Positions 10,656 through 22,165 of a stretch of DNA of 64,000 bases are shown piece after piece (position 1 is the stretch's first letter; each line of letters opens with the position of its first letter). A program made the translations under genes and the position numbers. This DNA comes from Pseudomonadota bacterium (GTDB taxonomy: Bacteria > Pseudomonadota > Alphaproteobacteria > Rhodobacterales > Rhodobacteraceae). Location: the NCBI GenBank assembly GCA_039815685.1, contig JBCBYV010000014.1, forward strand, positions 12,338 to 76,337, in the 5' to 3' direction. The notes beneath the pieces were generated by a model, which had not been told where the DNA came from, made no database searches, and saw only the letters and a list, made by a program, of their open reading frames with translations.

Positions 10656-10728
10656 GGGGAGGAGTCCTTTCGCGAGGCGCGTTTCGGCGCAGCTATGCCC
10701 TGCGTGCGCGTTGGCAAGCCGCAGCACC

Positions 10729-11643
10729 TCAAGGCTCAATTGCGGGCGGCGCAAGGATCGCGGCAAAGGGCGCGGCCGAGGGGGCGAGGTAGCAGAGCTC
10801 GAACTCCATCGGCGTGAGGCGGAGGAGCGGGCCCGGCACGATGCGTTCGAGCCGCCCTTCGGCCACTTCGTCCGCCACCAGCCGGTCGGGCAATGTGCCG
10901 ATGCCGAAGCCCGCGCGCGCAAGATGCGTCATGGTTGCGAGCGAGGACGAGCCGTGCAGCACCGGCGCCGGCGCCCCTGGTACGGTCAGCAGTCTGAGCA
11001 CTTCGCGCGCGGGCGGCGTGCGCCGGGCAAAGGTGATCACGGCAAGGTCACGCGCCGCCAGCACATCGAGGAAAGCGGCCGGCTCCAGCGGCCCGAGGCG
11101 ATGGGGGAGCAGACCGGGGGCGGCGTACCAGCCGAGGCTCACCCGCTCGATGGGTTGCGATGGCGCCCCGCCCGGCACCCATTGGCGCAGCAGAAGCGCG
11201 ATGTCGATGGCATCCTCGGTCAGGGCGCGCTGCAGGTCCTCTGAGACATCCACCGAGAGTTCGAGCCGTATCTTCGGCGCGGCCTCGCGCAGACGTTCCA
11301 GAAGCTGCGGCAGGGCGGAGTGAACGATCGTCTCCGCCACGCCTATGCGCAGCGTGCCCTCCATCCCTTCCCCGGCCGACAGCTCCGCCGCGATGCTGTC
11401 GCGCAGATCGAGGAGCAGGTTGGCCCGTTCGAGAAAGCGCCGCCCCTCCGGCGCAAGCCGCGCACCGCGCCGCGACCGGTCGAAGAGGACAAGGCCGAGC
11501 GTCTCCTCGAGATGCGAGATTCGCTCCGACACCGCGGAGGGTGCAACCTTCAGCACTTCAGCCGCCGCCCGAAATCCTCCGGCACGGGCGATTTCGCGCA
11601 CGATCTCCGCATCCCTCAGTCCGAACATCGCTACCTTCCCCAT
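10729..11643 (-). CDS. LysR-family transcriptional regulator
   Basis: N-terminal HTH FRAAAEVLKVAPSAVSERISHLEETLGLVLFDRS, then LRIGVAETI. Divergent from the DUF1445 operon. Confidence 0.92.
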   Translation of the reverse strand: MGKVAMFGLRDAEIVREIARAGGFRAAAEVLKVAPSAVSERISHLEETLGLVLFDRSRRGARLAPEGRRFLERANLLLDLRDSIAAELSAGEGMEGTLRIGVAETIVHSALPQLLERLREAAPKIRLELSVDVSEDLQRALTEDAIDIALLLRQWVPGGAPSQPIERVSLGWYAAPGLLPHRLGPLEPAAFLDVLAARDLAVITFARRTPPAREVLRLLTVPGAPAPVLHGSSSLATMTHLARAGFGIGTLPDRLVADEVAEGRLERIVPGPLLRLTPMEFELCYLAPSAAPFAAILAPPAIEP

Positions 11644-11645
11644 AG

Positions 11646-11664
11646 TGTTCGGTTTAGCCGAACA
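11646..11664. promoter_or_regulatory. LysR-type operator palindrome
   Basis: TGTTCGG-TTTAG-CCGAACA, a perfect 7-bp dyad containing T-N11-A, at the lysR start codon. Confidence 0.65.
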
Positions 11665-11737
11665 TATTGATCATCATTTGATCGATTGACGATGACAACA
11701 ATCTCTGGTGGCGTGTCTTCGTACGGAGGTTGAAGCC

Positions 11738-12556
11738 ATGGCCGGCAGAACGCCCGACGAGATCGCCACGGATGCCCGGTCCTTCCGCAAGCGTGTGCGG
11801 AGCGGCGAGTGGAAAGGCCCCACCACCGGCGCCGCGCATGGCGCGCTGCAGGCGAACCTCGCGGTCATGCCGGCCTCCCATGCCGAGGCCTTCGAGACGT
11901 TCTGCCACCTGAACCCTCGACCCTGCCCCCTGCTGGGCCGCACCGCGCCTGGGCGCCGGGAGATCCCGGAACTTGCCCACGACCTCGACATCGCGCGTGA
12001 CGTACCGGCCTACCGCGTGCTCCGTCACGGCGCCCCGGCCGAAAAGCTCGATACGCTTGAGCCGATCTGGGCGGATCAGACCGTGGTCTTTGCCATCGGC
12101 TGCTCGTTCTCCTTCGAAGCGGCGATGGAAGGGGCCGGCATTCCGGTGCGTCACTGGCAGCGTCGGGCGAACGTCCCGATGTATCTCTCGAACATCGACA
12201 CGAAGCCCTCGGGGCCCTTCGGCGGCAAGATGGTCGTGAGCATGCGCGGCGTGCCCGCGGACCGAGCAAGTGAGCTACAGGCGCTCTGCTCCCGTTTCCC
12301 CTTTGCCCACGGCGCGCCGGTGCATATCGGCGACCCGGCGGAGATCGGGATCACAGACATCGCAAAGCCGGATTTTGGCGATGACCCATACGTGGAGGAG
12401 GGCGACGTGCTCGCCTTCTGGGCCTGCGGGGTGACGGCGCAGATCGCGCTTCGCCACGCGCGCTTGACCCTCGCTGCCGCGCATGAACCCGGCCACATGC
12501 TGGTGACGGACCTTGATGCCTCGGCGCCGGGCCTCGCCGCCTGGGCCGCTGCCTGA
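11738..12556 (+). CDS. DUF1445 putative hydro-lyase, D-glutamate cyclase family
   Basis: LQANL, FCHLNPRPCPLL, FAIGCSFSFE, HGAPVHIGDP, FWACGVT, HEPGHMLVTD. GGAGG RBS. Confidence 0.85.
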   Translation: MAGRTPDEIATDARSFRKRVRSGEWKGPTTGAAHGALQANLAVMPASHAEAFETFCHLNPRPCPLLGRTAPGRREIPELAHDLDIARDVPAYRVLRHGAPAEKLDTLEPIWADQTVVFAIGCSFSFEAAMEGAGIPVRHWQRRANVPMYLSNIDTKPSGPFGGKMVVSMRGVPADRASELQALCSRFPFAHGAPVHIGDPAEIGITDIAKPDFGDDPYVEEGDVLAFWACGVTAQIALRHARLTLAAAHEPGHMLVTDLDASAPGLAAWAAA

Positions 12557-12619
12557 CGTCCCGCCGCGTGGCGGCCCCCGCCTGCCGACGAATGAAAAGA
12601 AGAGACGAGGAGAGTATCA

Positions 12620-13660
12620 ATGACCACCCGCCTTATCGCCTCCGCCGCCACGGCCCTCGCGCTCGCCGCCACTGCGGCACCCGCGGCCGAGACATTCTCG
12701 GTCGTCGGCAGCTGGTCGTCCCTGCCGCTCTACAACGACTACGAGGCGCCCTTCTGGACGACGCAGCTGCCCGAGGCGTCGGGCGGCAACATCGCCGTCG
12801 AAATGACCACCTTCAACCAGATGGGCGTCAAGGGCGGCGACGTCTTCCGCCTGCTCAATGACGGCGTCTTCGACGTGGGCATGACCGTGGCGGACTATAC
12901 GGTCGGCGACGCGCCGGAACTCGAAGGCCTCGATGTGCCCCTGATCGCCACCGATGCGGCCACGGCGCGCAAGGCCGTGGATGCAGCGCGCCCCATGGTG
13001 GCGGACATCATGGAGCAGTCCTTCGGGGCCAAGATGCTCGCGATTGCGCCCTACCCGCCGCAGATCATCTTCTGCAAGCCGGAGGTGTCGAAGCTCAGCG
13101 ACCTTCAGGGGCTGAAGATCCGCGGCTCGGGCCGGATGACAACGAAACTTCTTGAGGCGCTCGGCGCCGAGGGCGTCAATGTCGGCTTCTCCGAGGTGCC
13201 GGGCGCGCTCCAGCGCGGCGTCGTGGACTGCGCGATCACCGGTTCCGGCTCGGGCTACAACGCCGGCTGGCACGAGGTGACAACGCATGTGATGCCCCTG
13301 CCGCTCGGTGGCTGGGACCCGGTCGTGACCGCCATGAACCTCGACCGCTGGAACAGCCTCGACGCCGAGACGCAGGCGCTCATCCAGAAGGAGATCGCCG
13401 AGAAGTTCGAGACGCCCGCCTGGGAGACCGCGGCTGCGAGCCTCGAGACCGATCTCGACTGCCTCACCGGCCGGGCCGACTGCCCGATGGGCGACCCCGC
13501 CTCGATGACCCTAGTGCCGGTCACGGCCGAGGACGAGGCGACGGCGCGCGAGATCCTGGTCGGTACCGTGCTACCGGACTGGGCCGAGCGGGCGGGCGGC
13601 GACTGGAAGACCCGCTGGAACGAGAGCGTCGGCGCTGCGACCGGCGTGGCCATTCCCTAA
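12620..13660 (+). CDS. TRAP transporter substrate-binding protein (DctP family)
   Basis: Sec signal peptide, SDLQGLKIR (carboxylate-binding Arg), EVPGALQRGVVDC. Confidence 0.88.
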   Translation: MTTRLIASAATALALAATAAPAAETFSVVGSWSSLPLYNDYEAPFWTTQLPEASGGNIAVEMTTFNQMGVKGGDVFRLLNDGVFDVGMTVADYTVGDAPELEGLDVPLIATDAATARKAVDAARPMVADIMEQSFGAKMLAIAPYPPQIIFCKPEVSKLSDLQGLKIRGSGRMTTKLLEALGAEGVNVGFSEVPGALQRGVVDCAITGSGSGYNAGWHEVTTHVMPLPLGGWDPVVTAMNLDRWNSLDAETQALIQKEIAEKFETPAWETAAASLETDLDCLTGRADCPMGDPASMTLVPVTAEDEATAREILVGTVLPDWAERAGGDWKTRWNESVGAATGVAIP

Positions 13661-13669
13661 GCCCGAGCG

Positions 13670-14260
13670 GTGACCGCCGAACGGACCCTTGCCGCCCTGC
13701 GCCGCGTGAATGCCGGCGTGGGGCTTGGCTGCGGGCTGGTGCTGCTCGCCGCCTGCGCCTTCATCCTGCTCGAGATCGTGATGCGCCGGGTCGCCTTCGG
13801 CATCTTCGGCGGCACGGACGAGATCTCGGGCTACGTGATGGCTGGGGTCGCGAGCTTCGCTGCCGGCTATGCGCTGGTCGAGCGCGCCCATATTCGCATC
13901 GACATCCTGCACCGCCGACTGCCGGCGGTGGCGCGGACGCTACTCGACATCCTGAGCCTCGGCGGTCTCTTTGCGGTATCGCTCACGCTCCTCTACCACG
14001 GCGGCGGGGTCCTCTCGAAGTCGCTGAGTGCCGGATCGACCGCCAACACGCCGCTCGAGACACCGCTCTGGATACCCCAGCTCATCTGGCTCCTCGGCTG
14101 GGTATGGTTCGCGGTCGCGGCACTGGTGCTGCTCGTTCTCACCATTCGCTTCGCGCTCTCGGCCGACTGGTCGAACGCCGCCGCGCTGGCGGCGCCCGAG
14201 ACCGACGAAAGCGCGGTCGAGACTGCGTTGAACGAAGAAGAGGGGCGGCGGACGACATGA
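13670..14260 (+). CDS. TRAP small permease (DctQ)
   Basis: 4 TM, GTDEISGY, HIRIDIL, PLWIPQ. Confidence 0.88.
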   Translation: MTAERTLAALRRVNAGVGLGCGLVLLAACAFILLEIVMRRVAFGIFGGTDEISGYVMAGVASFAAGYALVERAHIRIDILHRRLPAVARTLLDILSLGGLFAVSLTLLYHGGGVLSKSLSAGSTANTPLETPLWIPQLIWLLGWVWFAVAALVLLVLTIRFALSADWSNAAALAAPETDESAVETALNEEEGRRTT

Positions 14261-15549
14261 TCACGCGTCTCACCATCGCCCTCCTCGCGCTGCTGGTGGT
14301 CTCCGCGCCTGTGGGGCTCACGCTCTTCGTGCTGGCCTTCGGGGTGGACTGGTTCTTCTCGGCATTCCCCCTCTCCCGCGGGATGGGACAGGTGATCTGG
14401 AGTTCCTCGAACTCCGCTCTCCTCATCGCCATCCCTTTCTTCATCTTCCTGGGCGAGCTACTGGTCCGATCCGGCGTTGCCGCGCGCACCTACAAGGCGC
14501 TCGATGCCTGGCTCTCCTGGCTGCCCGGCGGGCTCATCCACGCGAATATCGCGACGGCGACGGCGTTCTCCGCCACCTCCGGCTCTTCGGTGGCCACGGC
14601 TGCAACTGTAGCGACCGTGGCGACGCCACAGGGCACGAAGCTCGGCTACGACCCGCGCCTTTTTGCCGGCGCGATCGCTGCCGGGGGAACGCTCGGCATC
14701 ATGATCCCGCCCTCAATCAACCTGATCGTCTACGGGTTTCTGACCCAGACCTCGATCCCGCAGCTCTTCCTTGCCGGGCTCATTCCGGGGATCCTGCTCG
14801 CGCTCATGTTCATGGGCGTGACAGCCCTCATCTGCTCGCTAAAGCCGTCCTATGGCGGCCCGGGAACGAAAGTCGACTGGAACGCGCGCCTCCGCGGGCT
14901 CTGGGATCTCGTGCCGGTGCTGATCCTATTCGCCGCCATCGTCGGCTCGATCTATGCCGGCTGGGCCACGCCGACGGAGGCCGCGGCCGTGGGCGTGGCC
15001 ATCGCCGCCGTCATCGCCGCATCCGTCGGCGGGCTCACGCTCGCCGCCGTGCACGCAGCCCTCCTCGGCACGGTGAAGGTGACGGGGATGATTATCTTCA
15101 TCATCCTCGCCGCCTCCTTCCTCAACTACACGCTCGGCGCCGCGGGCCTTGGCCGAGAGCTGCAGGCGCTGCTCGACAGCCTGCAACTCGGACCGCTCGA
15201 GACCATGCTGGCGATCATCGTGCTCTACATCATCCTCGGCTTCTTCATCGAGACCCTGAGCCTGATGGTCGCCACGATCCCCATCGTAGCGCCAATCGTC
15301 ATCGCCATAGGCTACGACCCCGTCTGGTTCGGCATCATGCTGATCCTTCTGGTGGAGATGGCGCTGATCACGCCGCCCGTCGGTCTCAACCTCTTCGTCG
15401 TGCAAGCTGCACGACGCGCCGCCGGCGCGCCCGGCGGGCTCGGCGTCGTAATGCAGGGAGCAGCGCCCTATGCCGTCGTTATGCTGCTCATGGCCTTTCT
15501 GCTGCTCGCCGTCCCGGGCCTCGCGCTCTGGCTGCCGAGCCTCGGCTAG
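14257..15549 (+). CDS. TRAP large permease (DctM)
   Basis: LIAIPFFIFLGE, SGSSVA, AGGTLGIMIPPS, TPTEAAAVG, ITPPVGLNLF. ATGA overlap with dctQ. Confidence 0.92.
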   Translation: MITRLTIALLALLVVSAPVGLTLFVLAFGVDWFFSAFPLSRGMGQVIWSSSNSALLIAIPFFIFLGELLVRSGVAARTYKALDAWLSWLPGGLIHANIATATAFSATSGSSVATAATVATVATPQGTKLGYDPRLFAGAIAAGGTLGIMIPPSINLIVYGFLTQTSIPQLFLAGLIPGILLALMFMGVTALICSLKPSYGGPGTKVDWNARLRGLWDLVPVLILFAAIVGSIYAGWATPTEAAAVGVAIAAVIAASVGGLTLAAVHAALLGTVKVTGMIIFIILAASFLNYTLGAAGLGRELQALLDSLQLGPLETMLAIIVLYIILGFFIETLSLMVATIPIVAPIVIAIGYDPVWFGIMLILLVEMALITPPVGLNLFVVQAARRAAGAPGGLGVVMQGAAPYAVVMLLMAFLLLAVPGLALWLPSLG

Positions 15550-15558
15550 GAGAGGCCC

Positions 15559-16239
15559 ATGCCGCTCCGCTTCGAGACGCCTGAGGGCGCGCTGGAGGTC
15601 ACGCCTCGCCGCTGTCTGATCGCGGGCTGGACGGGTCGGGATCCCGCGAAGGTCGCCCATCATATCGAGGAGCTGGCGGCCATTGGAGTCGCCCCGCCCT
15701 CCACGACGCCGCTCTATTACCGCGTGCCTGCAGCGCTCGCGGCACAGGAGGCCGCCTACGAGGTGCTCTCGGCGGAAACAGGCGGAGAGTCCGAGCCCGT
15801 AATCCTCGACGATGGCGAGCGCCTCTGGCTGACCCTCGGCTCCGACCACACGGATCGCGGTCTCGAAGCCGCCTCCGTCGCCCATTCCAAAGCCGTCTGC
15901 CCCAAACCCCTCGCGACCGCGGCCTGGCCGCTCGAGGCGGTCGCAGCGCGTCTCGACGCCCTCACGCTCGAGAGCGAGATCTCCGCGGACGGGGCGTCTT
16001 GGCAGTCCTACCAGGCCGACAGCCTCACTGCGATGCTCCCGCTTCAGACGCTGATCGACGGCGCACCCGGCGCGAGCGCTGGCCGGCTCGGCGCGGGAAC
16101 GCTGCTCTTCTGCGGCACCGTCCCCGCCATCGGTGGCGTCCGCCCGACCCCGCATTTCCGGGCGCGGCTCCACGACCCTGCTGCCGGTCGGACAATTGCG
16201 CTTTCCTACCGAATAGAAGCGCTGCCCGTGATTGCCTGA
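15559..16239 (+). CDS. DUF2848 protein (fumarylacetoacetate-hydrolase-like fold)
   Basis: IAGWTGRD...HHIEELAAIGV.PPS.TPLYYRV, GSDHTDR.LE, SK.VCPKP, LFCGTVPAIGG. Confidence 0.8.
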   Translation: MPLRFETPEGALEVTPRRCLIAGWTGRDPAKVAHHIEELAAIGVAPPSTTPLYYRVPAALAAQEAAYEVLSAETGGESEPVILDDGERLWLTLGSDHTDRGLEAASVAHSKAVCPKPLATAAWPLEAVAARLDALTLESEISADGASWQSYQADSLTAMLPLQTLIDGAPGASAGRLGAGTLLFCGTVPAIGGVRPTPHFRARLHDPAAGRTIALSYRIEALPVIA

Positions 16240-16594: not shown

Positions 16595-16714
16595 GCGACG
16601 CCCCCTTGCTGACATCTCATTGAGACCCGCCCGCGCCGCGCCGTCCAGCCCGACCGCTTGCGCTCAACCTCGCGGCAGGCTCTTCTTCGATCACTGGAAC
16701 GCGCGGGATGGCGG

Positions 16715-18010
16715 ATGACCAAGACCACACCCTTCTGGTGGGAGGATGCCGGCGCGCCGAGCGCGCCCGCGCCCTCCCCCCTGCCCGACACGGCGGATGT
16801 GGTGATCGTCGGAGCCGGCCTCACTGGCGCCTCGGCCGCTCGCACGCTCGCCCGCGCCGGCCGCTCAGTCCTGCTGCTGGATGCCGGCGCCCCTGGCATC
16901 GGCGCCTCCAGCCGCAATGGCGGCATGATCGGCGGGGGCCACCGCCTCTCGCCAGAGGCGCTCCGCGCACGCTACGGGCCCGATCTCGCCCGCCGACTGC
17001 TCCATGAGGCGCATATCGAGAGCCTCGCCTTCTGCCGCACCCTCATGGCGGACGAGGGCATTGACCCGGATTTCCGGCAAACAGGCCGCTTTCGCGGCTT
17101 CTGGGCCGCGCGCGACTATGACAGCACCGCCGGAGCGATGGAGACGCTCGCCGGCCTCATCCCCCTCGACTACGAGATGATCCCGCGCGCCCGCCAGCAT
17201 GAGGAGACCGGCTCGCCCCTCTACCGCGGCGGCATCGTCTTCCCGTCGCATGGCGGCCTCAACCCTGCGAAATGGGTCAAGGGCCTGCTCGCCGCCGCAA
17301 CCCGCCATGGCGCGACGATCCAAGGCGACACACCCGTCCTCCGCATCGAGCGGGATGCCGAGGGCCACAGGATCGAGACCCCGCGCGGCACCGTCCGCGC
17401 AGGGCAGGTCCTGATCGCCACCAACGGCTATACATCCGCGGCCACGCCCGCGTTGCGCCGCCGCATCGTGCCCGTGCCGAGCTTCATCATCGCAACGGAG
17501 CCCTTGGGCGCGAACCGCATGAAGGCGCTCTTCCCCAAGGGCCGGATGACCGTCGAGAGCCGGGATAGGCATTGCTACTACCGCCCCTCTCCCGCCGGAG
17601 ACCGCATCGTCTTCGGCGGCCGGGCCGCGATGACCGATGCGCCGGAGCGCTTCGTTCGCCACCAACTCACGGGCCTCCTCGCACAGATCTTCCCCGATCT
17701 CGGCCCCGTAGCACTCAGCCATAGCTGGCGCGGTTTCACCGGCTTCACCTTCGAGACCTTGCCGCATATGGGCGAGATCGACGGCCTCTGGAACGCGATG
17801 GGCTATTCCGGCTCCGGCAACGCCATGGCCCCCTATCTCGGTCACAAGGCAGCCCTCTCGATGCTCGGTGATCCGGCAGGGGAGACCGCCTTCGCCCACA
17901 CGCGCTTCGAGACGCGCTGGTGGCATCGCGGGCGCCCCTGGTTCATGCCGGCCGCCGATATCGCGCTCCGCCTCCGCGATGCCCGAGCCGCCTTCGGCCG
18001 CGATGCCTGA
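16715..18010 (+). CDS. FAD-dependent amine/amino-acid oxidoreductase (PuuB/OrdL-like)
   Basis: IVGAGLTG, GASSRNGG, LNPAK, ATNGYT, GYSGSGNAMAPYLG. Confidence 0.85.
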   Translation: MTKTTPFWWEDAGAPSAPAPSPLPDTADVVIVGAGLTGASAARTLARAGRSVLLLDAGAPGIGASSRNGGMIGGGHRLSPEALRARYGPDLARRLLHEAHIESLAFCRTLMADEGIDPDFRQTGRFRGFWAARDYDSTAGAMETLAGLIPLDYEMIPRARQHEETGSPLYRGGIVFPSHGGLNPAKWVKGLLAAATRHGATIQGDTPVLRIERDAEGHRIETPRGTVRAGQVLIATNGYTSAATPALRRRIVPVPSFIIATEPLGANRMKALFPKGRMTVESRDRHCYYRPSPAGDRIVFGGRAAMTDAPERFVRHQLTGLLAQIFPDLGPVALSHSWRGFTGFTFETLPHMGEIDGLWNAMGYSGSGNAMAPYLGHKAALSMLGDPAGETAFAHTRFETRWWHRGRPWFMPAADIALRLRDARAAFGRDA

Positions 18011-18133: not shown

Positions 18134-19672
18134 ATGAACCCCGCCGAATGGCTGCAGCGCGCGGCCCGCCGCTGGCCGGACACCCCTGCCCTCCTGCGCG
18201 GCACCGAGTGTCTCGCGGACTACGCGGCCTTCGCGCAGCGCGCGGCGAGCCTCGCAGCGATGTTCCGCTACCATTACGGCATCGTCGGCGGCGACCGGGT
18301 GGCGATCTTCATGCCGAACGACCCGTCCTATCTCGAAGCGCTCTACGCAACCTGGCACGCGGGCGCCGCGGTCGTCCCGATCAACGCCAAGCTGCATGCG
18401 CGTGAGGCCGCCTGGATCCTCGCCGACAGCGGCACGCGTCTCGTCATCGCCAACGCGCCGCTGGTCGCAGCCCTCGATCCACATCTCCCCGACAGTGTCG
18501 AAGCGGTCATCGAGCCCGGCGGCGCCGCGTGGGAGGCAGCAGCAGAACGATCAGCGGCGTCGGAAACCGGCCCTGCCCGGATGACCGATCGGAGCCTCGT
18601 CTGGCTCTTCTACACTTCCGGGACAACCGGCCGGCCGAAAGGCGTGATGATCACCGCGGGCAACATCGCCGCCATGACCGCCTGCTACTTCATGGATGTC
18701 GACGAGGTGCGCCGGGACGACACGGCGCTCTACGCAGCACCCATGTCCCACGGCGCGGGCCTCTACAACTTCATGCATGTCATTCGCGGCGCGCGGCACT
18801 CGGTGCCGCCATCGGGCGGCTTCGATGCCGCGGAGATCCTTGACCTCGCGCCGCGGCTCGGCAGCGTCCACATGTTCGCGGCGCCGACCATGCTCCGCCG
18901 CCTGACCGATGCCGCCCGATCGGCGGGCAGTAACGGCGAGGGCATCCGCACGATCGTCTACGGCGGCGGGCCGATGTATCTCGCCGATGTCGAGGACGCC
19001 GTGCGCGTCCTAGGCCCCCGCTTCGTGCAGATCTACGGGCAGGGCGAGAGCCCGATGACCATCACCGCCCTCGCGCGCGATCTCGTATCCGATCGGCAGC
19101 ATCCGCGATGGCGGCAACGCCTCGGCTCGGTCGGTACGCCACAGTCGCTCGTCAGCCTTCGCATCGCAGACACCGCAGGGGAGGACGTAGCACCGGGGGA
19201 AACCGGTGAGATCCTCGTCGCGGGCCCCACCGTGATGGCTGGCTACTGGCAAAACCCAATGGCGACGGCCGAAACGATCCGAGACGGCTGGCTCCACACG
19301 GGCGATCTTGGCCGGCTCGATGAAGACGGCCTCCTGACGCTAATCGACCGCTCGAAGGACGTGATCATCTCGGGCGGTACCAACATCTACCCGCGGGAGG
19401 TGGAGGAGGCCCTGCTCGAGCACCCCGCTGTGCACGAGACCGCTGTCATCGGCCGCGCCCATGACGACTGGGGCGAGGAAGTCGTCGCCTTCGTCGTGCC
19501 AGCCCCGGGCGTCGAAATCGCCGAGGCCGATCTGGACGCCCATTGCCGCGACTGCATCGCTCGCTTCAAGCGCCCCAAGGCATACTTCCTCTGCGATGAC
19601 CTGCCGAAGAACAACTATGGCAAGGTGCTCAAAACGGCGCTGCGCGAACGGCTCGGCAGCCAGGAGCCATGA
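18134..19672 (+). CDS. AMP-binding acyl-CoA synthetase
   Basis: FYTSGTTGRPKG, QIYGQGE, WLHTGDLG, DRSKDVIISGGTNIYPREVE, LPKNNYGKVLK. Confidence 0.92.
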   Translation: MNPAEWLQRAARRWPDTPALLRGTECLADYAAFAQRAASLAAMFRYHYGIVGGDRVAIFMPNDPSYLEALYATWHAGAAVVPINAKLHAREAAWILADSGTRLVIANAPLVAALDPHLPDSVEAVIEPGGAAWEAAAERSAASETGPARMTDRSLVWLFYTSGTTGRPKGVMITAGNIAAMTACYFMDVDEVRRDDTALYAAPMSHGAGLYNFMHVIRGARHSVPPSGGFDAAEILDLAPRLGSVHMFAAPTMLRRLTDAARSAGSNGEGIRTIVYGGGPMYLADVEDAVRVLGPRFVQIYGQGESPMTITALARDLVSDRQHPRWRQRLGSVGTPQSLVSLRIADTAGEDVAPGETGEILVAGPTVMAGYWQNPMATAETIRDGWLHTGDLGRLDEDGLLTLIDRSKDVIISGGTNIYPREVEEALLEHPAVHETAVIGRAHDDWGEEVVAFVVPAPGVEIAEADLDAHCRDCIARFKRPKAYFLCDDLPKNNYGKVLKTALRERLGSQEP

Positions 19673-20761: not shown

Positions 20762-22165
20762 ATGACGACCCTAGAGAACACGCCCTTTGACGCCATCGTC
20801 CCGGGCCAGTCGGCGGAGCTGCGCCGGCTCTGCACGGAAGACGACTTCTACGCCTTCGCCGCGACGACGGGGAACCACAATCCGCTGCATCTGAGCGACC
20901 ATGACGGCGACGGAGACGGCTCACCCGAGGCGATTGCGCCGGCGCTCTTCGTTGGCAGTCTGATCTCGGCGGTGCTGGGCACGATGCTGCCGGGGGCGGG
21001 CACGGTCTACCTCTCGCAGAGCTTCCGCTTTCACAACCGTGCTGCGGTGGGCGACGAACTGCTGGCGGCGGTCGAGGTGCTGGAGACCGGGCCCGAGCGG
21101 AGCGTCAAGCTCGCCACCACGGTTCGACGCCCGGCGGATGGCGCGCTGCTGCTGGATGGCGAAGCGTGGGTCAAGGCGCCGGAGAAACGGCTGCGTTTCG
21201 AAGGCGTGGATGTGCCCGGGCTCCTAGTCGAGCGACACCGGCATTTCGACGCGCTCCTGGCCCAGGCCGAGCCGCTCGACCCGATCCCCACGGCCGTCGT
21301 GGTGCCAGAAGATCCGAACAGCCTGGCGGGCGCCCTCCTCGCGATGCGCCACACCATCATCACGCCCATTCTGGTCGGCGCGCCGGGGCGGATCGCGGCG
21401 GCGGCGAAGGCGGCGGGTGCCTCCACCGACGGTATCGAGATCGTCGCAGCAGCCACCCATGAGGACGCAGCCCATGCGGCGGTCGATCTCGTCGCGGACG
21501 GACGGGCCCGCGCAGTGATGAAGGGACATCTGCACACGGACGAGCTCCTGCGCGCCTGTCTCCGCCGTGACCGCGGCCTTCGTGCCGGGCGCCGCTTCAC
21601 CCATGTCTTCGTGATGGATGTGCCGGGGCTCGCCCACCCGCTCCTCGTCACGGATGCCGCGATCAACATCGCGCCCGATCTCGCGACTAAGGTCGATATC
21701 GTTCAGAATGCGATCGACCTCGCCCGTGCCATCGGGATCGAAGAGCCGAAGGTCGGCGTGCTCTCGGCGGTCGAGACGGTGAACACAGCCATCCAGAGTT
21801 CGGTCGATGCGGCCCTTATCGCCAAGATGGCAGACCGGGGTCAGATCAAGGGCGGGCTCGTCGACGGACCGCTGGCGATGGACAACGCCATCGACATCAA
21901 GGCCGCGCGAACCAAGGGGATCGGCGGCGCGGTCGCCGGGATGGCCGAGGTGCTGGTCGTGCCGGGCATCGATGCGGGCAACATGCTGGCAAAGCAGCTC
22001 ACCTATGTGAGCCATGCGGAGGCCGCCGGCGTCGTGCTCGGCGCCTCAGTGCCGGTGATCCTCACGAGCCGGGCGGATGACGACAAGGCGCGCCTTGCCT
22101 CCTGTGCCGTTGCGGCACTGCATTCCGTCTGGATGGCGGATCAGGCAAGCCGAAGCGGGTACTGA
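20762..22165 (+). CDS. Bifunctional MaoC-type enoyl-CoA hydratase / phosphate acyltransferase
   Basis: N-terminal hotdog domain (TGNHNPLHL, LPGAGTVYLSQ) plus PTA/PTB domain (DAAINIAPDL, DGPLAMDNAI, GNMLAKQL, LTSRAD). Confidence 0.9.
   Translation: MTTLENTPFDAIVPGQSAELRRLCTEDDFYAFAATTGNHNPLHLSDHDGDGDGSPEAIAPALFVGSLISAVLGTMLPGAGTVYLSQSFRFHNRAAVGDELLAAVEVLETGPERSVKLATTVRRPADGALLLDGEAWVKAPEKRLRFEGVDVPGLLVERHRHFDALLAQAEPLDPIPTAVVVPEDPNSLAGALLAMRHTIITPILVGAPGRIAAAAKAAGASTDGIEIVAAATHEDAAHAAVDLVADGRARAVMKGHLHTDELLRACLRRDRGLRAGRRFTHVFVMDVPGLAHPLLVTDAAINIAPDLATKVDIVQNAIDLARAIGIEEPKVGVLSAVETVNTAIQSSVDAALIAKMADRGQIKGGLVDGPLAMDNAIDIKAARTKGIGGAVAGMAEVLVVPGIDAGNMLAKQLTYVSHAEAAGVVLGASVPVILTSRADDDKARLASCAVAALHSVWMADQASRSGY

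Follow-up and report, generated by a model that had tools for sequence, protein, structure and literature searches.

Which compound is taken up, and how is it transformed, by a LysR-controlled operon that joins a tripartite ATP-independent periplasmic (TRAP) transporter to two enzymes of the families DUF1445 and DUF2848? The operon and its regulator occupy positions 10,729 to 16,239 of a 64,000-nucleotide stretch of DNA, hereafter the window, from a bacterium of the Rhodobacteraceae (assembly GCA_039815685.1, contig JBCBYV010000014.1, positions 12,338 to 76,337 of the forward strand). A first-pass annotation, made from the sequence without database searches, had proposed a complete import-and-transform module for a D-amino acid or a cyclic imino/dicarboxylic acid. 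The comparative analysis reported here leads to a related reading, which is favoured tentatively, namely a LysR-controlled uptake-and-conversion operon, representing a conserved proteobacterial module, that would act on a pyroglutamate-like C5 lactam or on its open-chain amino- or oxo-dicarboxylate.

Gene organization of the operon

Pfam and NCBIfam scans of the long open reading frames (ORFs) between 9.5 and 19.7 kb of the window, whose G+C content around the operon is 66-71%, assigned all six genes to the expected families. The lysR gene lies on the minus strand and diverges from DUF1445-dctP-dctQ-dctM-DUF2848 on the plus strand (11738-16239), the arrangement that had been described before any database was consulted:

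10729-11643, minus strand: LysR-type regulator (HTH_1 PF00126, E 7.5e-17; LysR_substrate PF03466, E 1.1e-26)
11738-12556, plus strand: DUF1445/UPF0317 'putative hydro-lyase', P0001, 272 aa, first enzyme gene of the operon (Pfam, NCBIfam)
12620-13660, plus strand: TRAP solute-binding protein DctP, P0003, 346 aa (Pfam DctP)
13670-14260, plus strand: TRAP small membrane subunit DctQ (Pfam PF04290, E 9e-20)
14257-15549, plus strand: TRAP large membrane subunit DctM (PF06808, E 1e-76; TIGR00786, 290 bits, above the cut-off)
15559-16239, plus strand: DUF2848 protein, P0002, 226 aa, last gene of the operon (PF11010, E 6e-63)

The DUF1445 gene likely starts at the ATG at 11738, which is preceded by GGAGG, while the GTG at 11708 is disfavoured. 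Reading of the junctions places the real start of dctM at 14257, overlapping the stop codon of dctQ in an ATGA, and gives successive gaps of 63, 9, -4 and 9 bp along the five genes, in agreement with the earlier statement of gaps of 63 bp or less. No terminator-like sites were found within the five-gene unit. From this spacing the five genes are probably co-transcribed. The NCBIfam scan matched no specific equivalog to lysR.

Conservation of the DUF1445-TRAP-DUF2848 module

In an even sample of 401 alphaproteobacterial genomes searched for the two enzyme families, DUF2848 was found in 49 and DUF1445 in 69. They occur together in 35 genomes, against about 8 expected if they were independent, a figure inflated by relatedness and genome size, and in 13 of the sampled genomes they lie no more than 5 kb apart on one contig. 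The remaining 14 of the 49 DUF2848 genomes carry no DUF1445. The surroundings of DUF2848 were compared at 121 loci, made up of 40 from the even sample, 80 named loci from a species-representative collection and the window. Neighbours were clustered, the clusters were named by Pfam and NCBIfam, and the families were then mapped with hidden Markov models (HMMs) built from the clusters, within a radius of 6 kb from DUF2848. The most frequent neighbours are the TRAP subunits DctM (82 loci), DctQ (79) and DctP (77) together with DUF1445 (76), followed by LysR (59), an amidase of PF01425 (45) and short-chain dehydrogenases/reductases (SDR; 23). Less frequent are Cupin_7 (17), PxpA/B/C (12-14), old yellow enzyme (OYE) family members (12), CoA-transferase III (9) and HpaB-like monooxygenases (9). 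The co-occurrence of DUF1445 with DUF2848 is borne out both by the genome counts and by these neighbourhoods.

Three types of context were distinguished. Type I displays the order [LysR]-DUF1445-DctPQM-DUF2848, as a rule with an amidase or pxpBCA downstream, and comprises 69 loci from Alpha-, Beta- and Gammaproteobacteria, with hosts that include Roseibium, Thalassospira, Paracoccus, Salinicola, Psychromonas and Leisingera. The window belongs to this type, and its DUF2848 falls inside the TRAP/DUF1445 clade of the DUF2848 tree. Judged by this shared order, the five genes form a conserved functional module whose arrangement is not due to chance, as was supposed when they were first read as one unit. 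The module can nevertheless not be called complete, as had been claimed, because most relatives continue into an amidase or a 5-oxoprolinase whereas here a Cupin_7 gene and an OYE gene flank the operon instead. Together with L045 (78% identity) and L046 (66%), the window forms a long-branched subclade in which OYE stands behind lysR, Cupin_7 follows DUF2848 and amidase and pxp genes are absent. By gene content, the window is therefore an atypical instance of the module, in which Cupin_7 and OYE replace the amidase or the oxoprolinase.

Type II loci display the order SDR-DUF1445-DUF2848-CoA-transferase III without TRAP genes (L003, L007, L106, L111, L112, L120 and L121, from Reyranella and relatives), and all seven fall into one DUF2848 clade with 100% support. 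The CoA-transferase of these loci weakly resembles succinate-glutarate CoA-transferase, another hint of a C5 acid. Type III loci (L004, L005, L008, L013, L015, L019, L023, L032 and L122) combine DUF2848 with an HpaB-like flavin monooxygenase and Cupin_7, lack DUF1445, and occupy a basal grade of the DUF2848 tree; amidase, isochorismatase-like hydrolase, MarR and OYE genes are optional. The gene content of this type suggests the breakdown of a hydroxylated (hetero)aromatic compound.

Some variants of these arrangements were recorded separately. At L009, L010 and L012 the module continues in the order DUF2848, amidase, a 272-aa protein with no Pfam or NCBIfam match, and OYE. At L009 and L010 an Mn/Zn-type ABC transporter (ABC_tran and ABC-3) follows the OYE gene, recalling MntG, the Mn importer within the pxp operon of B. 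subtilis. At L020 (G069:C6:135963-136136) an intact DUF2848 is immediately preceded by a DUF1445 remnant, which covers profile positions 85-142 and has a TGA in frame, an apparent decay of the DUF1445-DUF2848 pair in one genome.

Association with lactam and amide hydrolases

At L014, L016 and L022 the three genes after DUF2848 encode, by Pfam, PxpB, PxpC and PxpA, the prokaryotic ATP-dependent 5-oxoprolinase, and in the relatives pxp genes adjoin the transporter at L014, L016, L022, L065, L069, L087, L096 and L114. Forty DUF1445 loci not adjoining DUF2848 were taken to test whether this link belongs to DUF1445 itself. TRAP genes are adjacent at 18 of the 40 and pxpBCA at 5, and an ORF of about 1200 aa (1200-1290 aa) lies nearby at 14 (L131, L134, L137, L141, L144, L146, L148, L150, L153, L156, L159, L164, L166 and L167). 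The four of these ORFs that were scanned (L131, L137, L148 and L166) match models of the caprolactamase A and B subunits, of the HyuA/HyuB ATP-dependent lactamase family, below the cut-offs of the models, and the other ten were assigned as HyuA/HyuB fusions from ORF size alone. The fused HyuA/HyuB protein would represent a non-homologous counterpart of PxpABC beside the same genes. That one and the same DUF1445-TRAP pair is accompanied by two lactam-opening systems unrelated to each other constitutes the strongest argument for 5-oxoproline, or a close lactam analogue, as the substrate. The theme of a cyclic imino/dicarboxylic acid, already sounded in the first-pass annotation, fits these links of the relatives to PxpBCA, HyuA/HyuB lactamases and amidases.

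No pxpA, pxpB or pxpC gene was found within 10 kb of the operon in the window. The absence of pxpABC noted earlier is thus true near the cluster but does not extend to the genome, as pxpA and pxpB are located on contig C38. The same genome encodes four Hydantoinase_B proteins. For a candidate amidase away from the operon, the best PRK07056-type match reaches 338 bits, below the model cut-off. No HpaB homologue was found in it.

A comparable association is seen in Bacillus subtilis. We take ycsI to be the DUF1445 member of this species, and the detection of PF07286 in B. subtilis is consistent with that. The gene ycsI is contained in the operon pxpA-mntG-ycsI-pxpB-pxpC (PMC10448178). Recent work has established L-pyroglutamate as a genuine substrate for bacteria of the sea (PMC11485210).

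DUF1445 is a single-domain protein with two invariant cysteines

The DUF1445 protein matches PF07286 (E 9e-56, 188 bits against a cut-off of 25) and the NCBIfam model 'putative hydro-lyase' (PRK05463, 331.7 bits against a cut-off of 324). Its sequence matches in the Protein Data Bank (PDB), 3DB9 (2.4e-66) and 2PIF (1.1e-63), are both structures of unknown function. A Foldseek search with its AlphaFold2 (AF2) model (predicted local distance difference test, pLDDT, 93.6) returned only these two structural-genomics entries and a weak match to the NrpR-like protein MJ0159, from which no mechanistic class could be derived. Residues G121-C122-S123, E127, R170, H191, W228-x-C230-G231-V232-T233, H249 and M254 are the same in all 118 homologues compared, whatever their genomic context, and C122 and C230 are conserved in 3DB9 and 2PIF too. 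Since these residues are fixed in every context, DUF1445 probably performs one reaction regardless of its neighbours. In the AF2 model C122 and C230 are each positioned at a strand-to-helix junction, a geometry typical of cofactor-independent two-thiol racemases and isomerases. In a predicted structure this resemblance is a lead and not a finding.

The homology of DUF1445 to D-glutamate cyclase, invoked in the first-pass annotation, holds in so far as PF07286 is shared. The link was however overstated, because it concerns one domain of a two-domain animal enzyme. The animal DUF1445+DUF4392 protein, which converts D-Glu to 5-oxo-D-proline, was assayed as a whole (PMC5339696), and its DUF4392 domain has an Mn-binding cavity of its own (PMC5132392). 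The protein of the window, in contrast, is a single domain without the DUF1445+DUF4392 (GLUCM-like_C) architecture of the sole characterised D-glutamate cyclase. DUF4392 (PF14336) was not found in the genome, an absence weakly shown because the same search found the family in no control genome. As only the whole fusion has been assayed, cyclase activity of a stand-alone bacterial DUF1445 is an assumption. The simple scheme of a cyclase followed by an oxoprolinase was rejected in that form. If D-Glu were cyclized to 5-oxo-D-proline and the ring then opened by an oxoprolinase at the cost of ATP, the result would be a futile cycle unless the stereocentre is inverted, and most DUF1445-TRAP-oxoprolinase loci hold no further enzyme able to invert it, so that this scheme fails to explain the commonest neighbours.

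DUF2848 displays the fold of fumarylacetoacetate hydrolases

The AF2 model of DUF2848, built from 52 homologues, reached a pLDDT of 96.5 and a predicted template modelling score (pTM) of 0.93. Searched with Foldseek against the PDB it gave 11 matches with E <= 0.001 and a twelfth, HpcG, at 8.5e-3, all of them proteins of the fumarylacetoacetate hydrolase (FAH) superfamily. The best is 4MAQ, a putative fumarylpyruvate hydrolase (E 3e-9, TM 0.65), and others are KdaD (2-keto-3-deoxy-arabinonate dehydratase, 2Q18/2Q19), FAH itself (1QCN), 4-oxalocrotonate decarboxylase (5D2I) and HpcG (2EB5). The structural alignments to FAH proteins have E values of 3e-9 to 7e-5, probability 1.0, TM 0.55-0.65 and about 15-19% identity. 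By its predicted fold DUF2848 can thus be placed with confidence as a distant FAH-superfamily enzyme. At the sequence level, a search of the PDB gave only chance-level matches to small transporter fragments (E 0.27 and 0.71), the 52-sequence profile matched no PDB entry and the Pfam scan gave no PF01557 match. The invariant residues of the family are H35, E38, E77-x-E79, S95-D96-H97-T98-D99-R100, K111 and K116. We presume that they resemble the metal and catalytic motifs E-x-E and N-D-x-S-x-R of FAH proteins, the residue mapping, that of the Glu/Glu/Asp metal triad included, being a suggestion. The literature search found no paper naming DUF2848, and the description given to it at the outset, an FAH-like fold with no established reaction, proved correct.

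The TRAP transporter and its solute-binding protein

DctP matches PF03480 (E 6.6e-25) and NCBIfam TRAP_S1 (84.6 bits against a cut-off of 50), and its N-terminus, MTTRLIASAATALALAATAAPA-AE, is a signal peptide ending AAPA-AE. The carboxylate-binding arginine, which the protein had been said to keep, is R168. It is invariant among 32 orthologues and aligns with the conserved Arg of the solved solute-binding proteins (SBPs) 5I5P, 5IM2, 4N4U and 2PFZ, equivalent to SiaP Arg-147. This arginine is found in 96.8% of the TRAP SBP family (PMC4646407), and R168 therefore tells only that the ligand is a carboxylate. The window DctP is 33-64% identical to DctPs adjoining DUF1445 and 23-28% identical to unrelated TRAP SBPs in the same loci, and one DctP at 57% identity adjoins a HyuAB fusion. 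The DUF1445-adjacent DctPs constitute one family that travels with DUF1445. An orthologue profile compared with solved SBPs placed 5I5P and 5IGA at the top (about 3-4e-27), with 2PFZ (5e-25) and 2PFY (1.7e-24) following. We take 5I5P, 5IGA, 5IM2, 7NR2 and 7NSW to be aromatic-acid binders, and 2PFZ and 2PFY to be the pyroglutamate-binding DctP6 and DctP7 of Bordetella. At about 25-30% identity of the window DctP to any solved SBP, the ligand is not transferable.

The lysR-DUF1445 intergenic region

The 94-bp spacer between lysR and DUF1445 holds two elements, listed without strand:

11646-11664: perfect 7+7 dyad TGTTCGG-N5-CCGAACA, which overlaps the leader of lysR and is a candidate site of recognition by LysR
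11669-11691: second conserved promoter element, GATCA-N5-TGATC and then TTGACG, a -35-like box of the operon; candidate activation site read from sequence

The dyad had been recognized as a perfect operator in the first reading. It has no second match in the window when up to 2 mismatches are allowed, and none in the 4.7-Mb genome when up to 1 is allowed. It is a predicted site of the T-N11-A type in the shared intergenic region, and its position is preserved in L045, with one mismatch, and in L046. The corresponding upstream site of the Roseibium and Thalassospira loci is GTGATCA-N7-TGATCAC, with the same 21-bp layout. Both half-sites are thus changed symmetrically (TGTTCGG-type versus TGATCA-type), the pattern to be expected where a site bound by a dimer co-evolves with the regulator. 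Motifs related to the second element, TGATC...GATTTGAC(T)TGATA, occur upstream of DUF1445 in many orthologous loci, and the element at 11669-11691 may serve as the activation site. A sigma-70-like lysR promoter is located at 11698-11670 on the minus strand, just upstream of the dyad. Transcription from it would start at the dyad, which fits autorepression of lysR.

Genes flanking the operon

The first-pass gene list was right for the six genes described above and overlooked two neighbours, the OYE and Cupin_7 genes. The genes on the two sides of the operon are:

9540-~10661, minus strand: OYE-family NADH:flavin oxidoreductase (Pfam Oxidored_FMN, E 1e-58; NCBIfam NamA and NEM-reductase-like models matched)
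16244-16595/16615, minus strand: Cupin_7 protein of small size, 117-123 aa (Pfam match of 28.3 bits, cut-off 27)
16658-18010, plus strand: DAO-family FAD oxidoreductase (Pfam, NCBIfam)
18134-19672, plus strand: acyl-CoA ligase (Pfam, NCBIfam)

The OYE gene, whose start near 10661 was deduced from the beginning of the domain, follows lysR on its strand after about 67 bp, and this OYE-LysR layout is shared with L045 and L046. Its product is likely an accessory enzyme of the locus, an ene-reductase, and the recurrence of OYE (12 of the 121 loci; behind lysR in the window, L045 and L046) suggests an ene-reduction step in the pathway. The Cupin_7 gene is convergent with DUF2848, the two gene ends lying 4 bp apart, and occupies the same position in L045 and L046. 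Its probable start is 16595, preceded by AAGGGGG, and its product scores 172 bits against an HMM made from 10 DUF2848 neighbours. Where Cupin_7 adjoins DUF2848 elsewhere, it mostly stands beside an HpaB-like monooxygenase.

The DAO and acyl-CoA ligase genes also follow in L046 and are rare elsewhere (DAO at 4 and AMP-ligase at 6 of the 121 loci). As members of the operon they were set aside, since they form a separate unit divergent from the cupin gene and conserved only in L046; they may extend the locus, though in this lineage alone. At 20762-22165 on the plus strand, some genes further right than the cluster, the window encodes an unusual fusion of a MaoC-like dehydratase with a PTA_PTB (phosphate acetyl/butyryl-transferase) domain.

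Proposed mechanism and alternative explanations

The uptake and conversion of a pyroglutamate-like C5 lactam would proceed as follows. Judged from the layout and from footprinting across orthologous loci, the LysR protein would bind the dyad at 11646-11664 and repress its own promoter, and in its inducer-bound form would activate the DUF1445 promoter via the second element. DctP, as known for its family, would capture the carboxylate through R168, and DctQM would import it. In the cytoplasm DUF1445 would act first, performing one fixed reaction on the 5-oxoproline/glutamate skeleton, which could be ring closure, ring opening or inversion of the stereocentre. DUF2848 would then act, as a divalent-metal enzyme of the FAH fold, on a 2-oxo, enol or enamide C5 intermediate, and its fold would suit tautomerisation, hydration or hydrolysis. 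The OYE ene-reductase and Cupin_7 may stand, in this lineage, where relatives carry an amidase or 5-oxoprolinase, and the product would finally enter glutamate or 2-oxoglutarate, the PxpABC proteins being supplied from another contig.

Several observations weigh against this proposal. Neither an amidase nor an oxoprolinase stands beside the operon of the window, and the lactam link rests on the relatives. About a quarter of the DUF2848 genes in the even sample sit with an HpaB-type monooxygenase and Cupin_7 and without DUF1445, so that the chemistry of DUF2848 is not confined to this pathway. The nearest solved SBPs by score (5I5P, 5IGA and 5IM2) are the presumed aromatic-acid binders, and the transporter alone therefore does not indicate pyroglutamate. 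An hhalign comparison of the DUF2848 profile with three FAH proteins of the same genome gave a non-significant probability of 1.6%, pairing LGSDHTDR with VxNDVSER. In addition, the literature search retrieved no experiment on a bacterial member of either the DUF1445 or the DUF2848 family.

A bolder version of the proposal, which we consider on the unlikely side, is that DUF1445 is no cyclase but a cofactor-independent lactam inverter or isomerase with two thiols (C122/C230), and that DUF2848 represents a new enzyme of the FAH fold whose substrate is a lactam, enamide or 2-oxo-amide intermediate. Together with the TRAP importer they would form a new route by which marine and soil proteobacteria salvage D- or modified pyroglutamates to glutamate or 2-oxoglutarate via ATP-dependent oxoprolinases or amidases. 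The opposite assignment, in which D-Glu is imported, for instance from peptidoglycan turnover, is cyclized by DUF1445 as a true D-glutamate cyclase, passes to DUF2848 as, for example, a lactam racemase or hydrolase, and reaches L-glutamate via PxpABC, is judged rather unlikely. It would account for the above-cut-off matches to PF07286 and the NCBIfam 'putative hydro-lyase' model, for pxpBCA after DUF2848 at 12-14 loci and for pxpA/B in this genome. A logic of derivatising, racemising and deprotecting D-Glu is moreover established in marine bacteria by the DgcN/DgcA route. FAH-fold enzymes, however, are not known to racemise the alpha-carbons of carboxylates, and at most DUF1445-TRAP-oxoprolinase loci neither DUF2848 nor another enzyme that might be a racemase is present, which would leave an ATP-burning futile cycle. 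The animal protein does make 5-oxo-D-proline from D-Glu (PMC5339696), but that enzyme was assayed whole, with a DUF4392 that carries its own Mn site (PMC5132392) and was not found in this genome by a search that was positive in no control genome.

The substrate might alternatively be an unsaturated or N-heteroaromatic C5 ring, such as the 5-oxo-dihydropyrrole-2-carboxylate derived from pyrrole-2-carboxylate, a dehydro- or hydroxy-pyroglutamate, or 2-oxoglutaramate lactam. DUF1445 would then hydrate or dehydrate the ring, DUF2848 would be an FAH-type tautomerase or hydrolase, OYE would reduce the C=C bond, and an amidase (encoded elsewhere) or oxoprolinase would finish the route to 2-oxoglutarate or glutamate. 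In favour of this route, activated C=C bonds are the targets of OYE enzymes, and the operons of the window, L045 and L046 have Cupin_7 and OYE at their flanks. DUF2848 is also repeatedly accompanied by an HpaB-like flavin monooxygenase, Cupin_7, amidase and isochorismatase-like hydrolase (12 loci). The FAH-fold relatives KdaD, 4-oxalocrotonate decarboxylase and HpcG likewise act on C5/C6 2-oxo or enol acids. We consider this route unlikely, because the genome has no HpaB homologue, the HpaB-linked DUF2848 genes belong to a different, basal part of the tree, the scheme is assembled from general chemistry, and no pathway of this kind is known to use these families. Import of a hydroxy-aromatic acid, with DUF2848 as a hydrolase of ring-fission products as in the gentisate and homogentisate pathways, would agree with the best-scoring SBPs, if 5I5P, 5IGA, 5IM2, 7NR2 and 7NSW are indeed aromatic-acid binders, and with the resemblance of the FAH fold, the neighbouring cupin and the HpaB contexts elsewhere to aromatic pathways. 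It is improbable, given that the identity to those SBPs is low and the presumed pyroglutamate binders score nearly equal, that the locus holds no ring-hydroxylating or ring-cleaving dioxygenase of known type, and that DUF1445-TRAP is accompanied chiefly by lactam hydrolases and amidases, for which an aromatic route has no use. That DUF1445 and DUF2848 are neighbours by accident with unrelated roles might be argued from the 15 loci of other context among 41 sampled DUF2848 loci (window included) and from the DUF2848 genomes without DUF1445 (14 of 49). Comparative data nevertheless contradict it already, and it is highly improbable, as the same order recurs at 69 loci of three proteobacterial classes, the pair persists without a transporter in a separate clade and the junctions are tight or overlapping. 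What likelihood is left falls to an explanation not considered here.

Relation to known systems and significance

As a kind of system, a catabolic TRAP operon under LysR control and close to 5-oxoprolinase metabolism is familiar. The 5-oxoprolinase operons, as represented by pxpABC, B. subtilis and the pyroglutamate-uptake clusters of SAR11 and C. glutamicum, likewise combine a transporter and C5-lactam enzymes under a local regulator, and close relatives of the present locus (L014, L016, L022/L114, L069 and L096) run straight into pxpBCA. They differ in that the pxp genes of this genome lie on another contig, with none beside the operon, that an ABC system or PxpT takes the place of the TRAP transporter, and that the conserved core here is DUF1445 and DUF2848, accompanied by Cupin_7 and an OYE reductase. 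Similarly, DctP-type TRAP systems with known ligands (Bordetella DctP6/DctP7, 2PFZ/2PFY; SiaPQM; aromatic-acid TarP-like) share the P-Q-M layout, the signal peptide and the carboxylate Arg (PMC4646407), whereas the present DctP stands apart from the solved SBPs in a DUF1445-linked subfamily. Mammalian DGLUCY (C14orf159/9030617O03Rik, EC 4.2.1.48) has the DUF1445 (PF07286) domain in common with the operon, and its substrate and product, D-Glu and 5-oxo-D-proline, belong to the chemical family suggested by the gene neighbourhood, but it carries DUF4392 with the Mn site where the protein of the window is DUF1445 alone (PMC5339696, PMC5132392). DUF2848 shares its fold with the FAH superfamily (fumarylacetoacetate and fumarylpyruvate hydrolases, KdaD, 4-oxalocrotonate decarboxylase and HpcE/HpcG) and differs from it in having no sequence-level match to solved FAH proteins and a Pfam family of its own. 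The conserved enzymatic core, DUF1445 with DUF2848, is undescribed, as was expected of the pathway from the outset, for the literature search gave no paper on DUF2848 and no function for bacterial DUF1445.

Both families are widespread, and the name given to bacterial DUF1445 derives solely from its analogy with a single domain of an animal enzyme. The comparison of loci narrows the likely substrate to a C5 lactam or amide, either the enantiomers or close derivatives of pyroglutamate or 2-oxoglutaramate lactam. It also suggests which of the two enzymes comes first, and indicates the genes that complete the route in different lineages. The matched TGTTCGG-type and TGATCA-type operator variants offer a regulator-operator pair suited to inducer screening. 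If true, a second route for D- or modified pyroglutamate would enlarge the picture of dissolved organic nitrogen turnover and would give functions to thousands of database entries.

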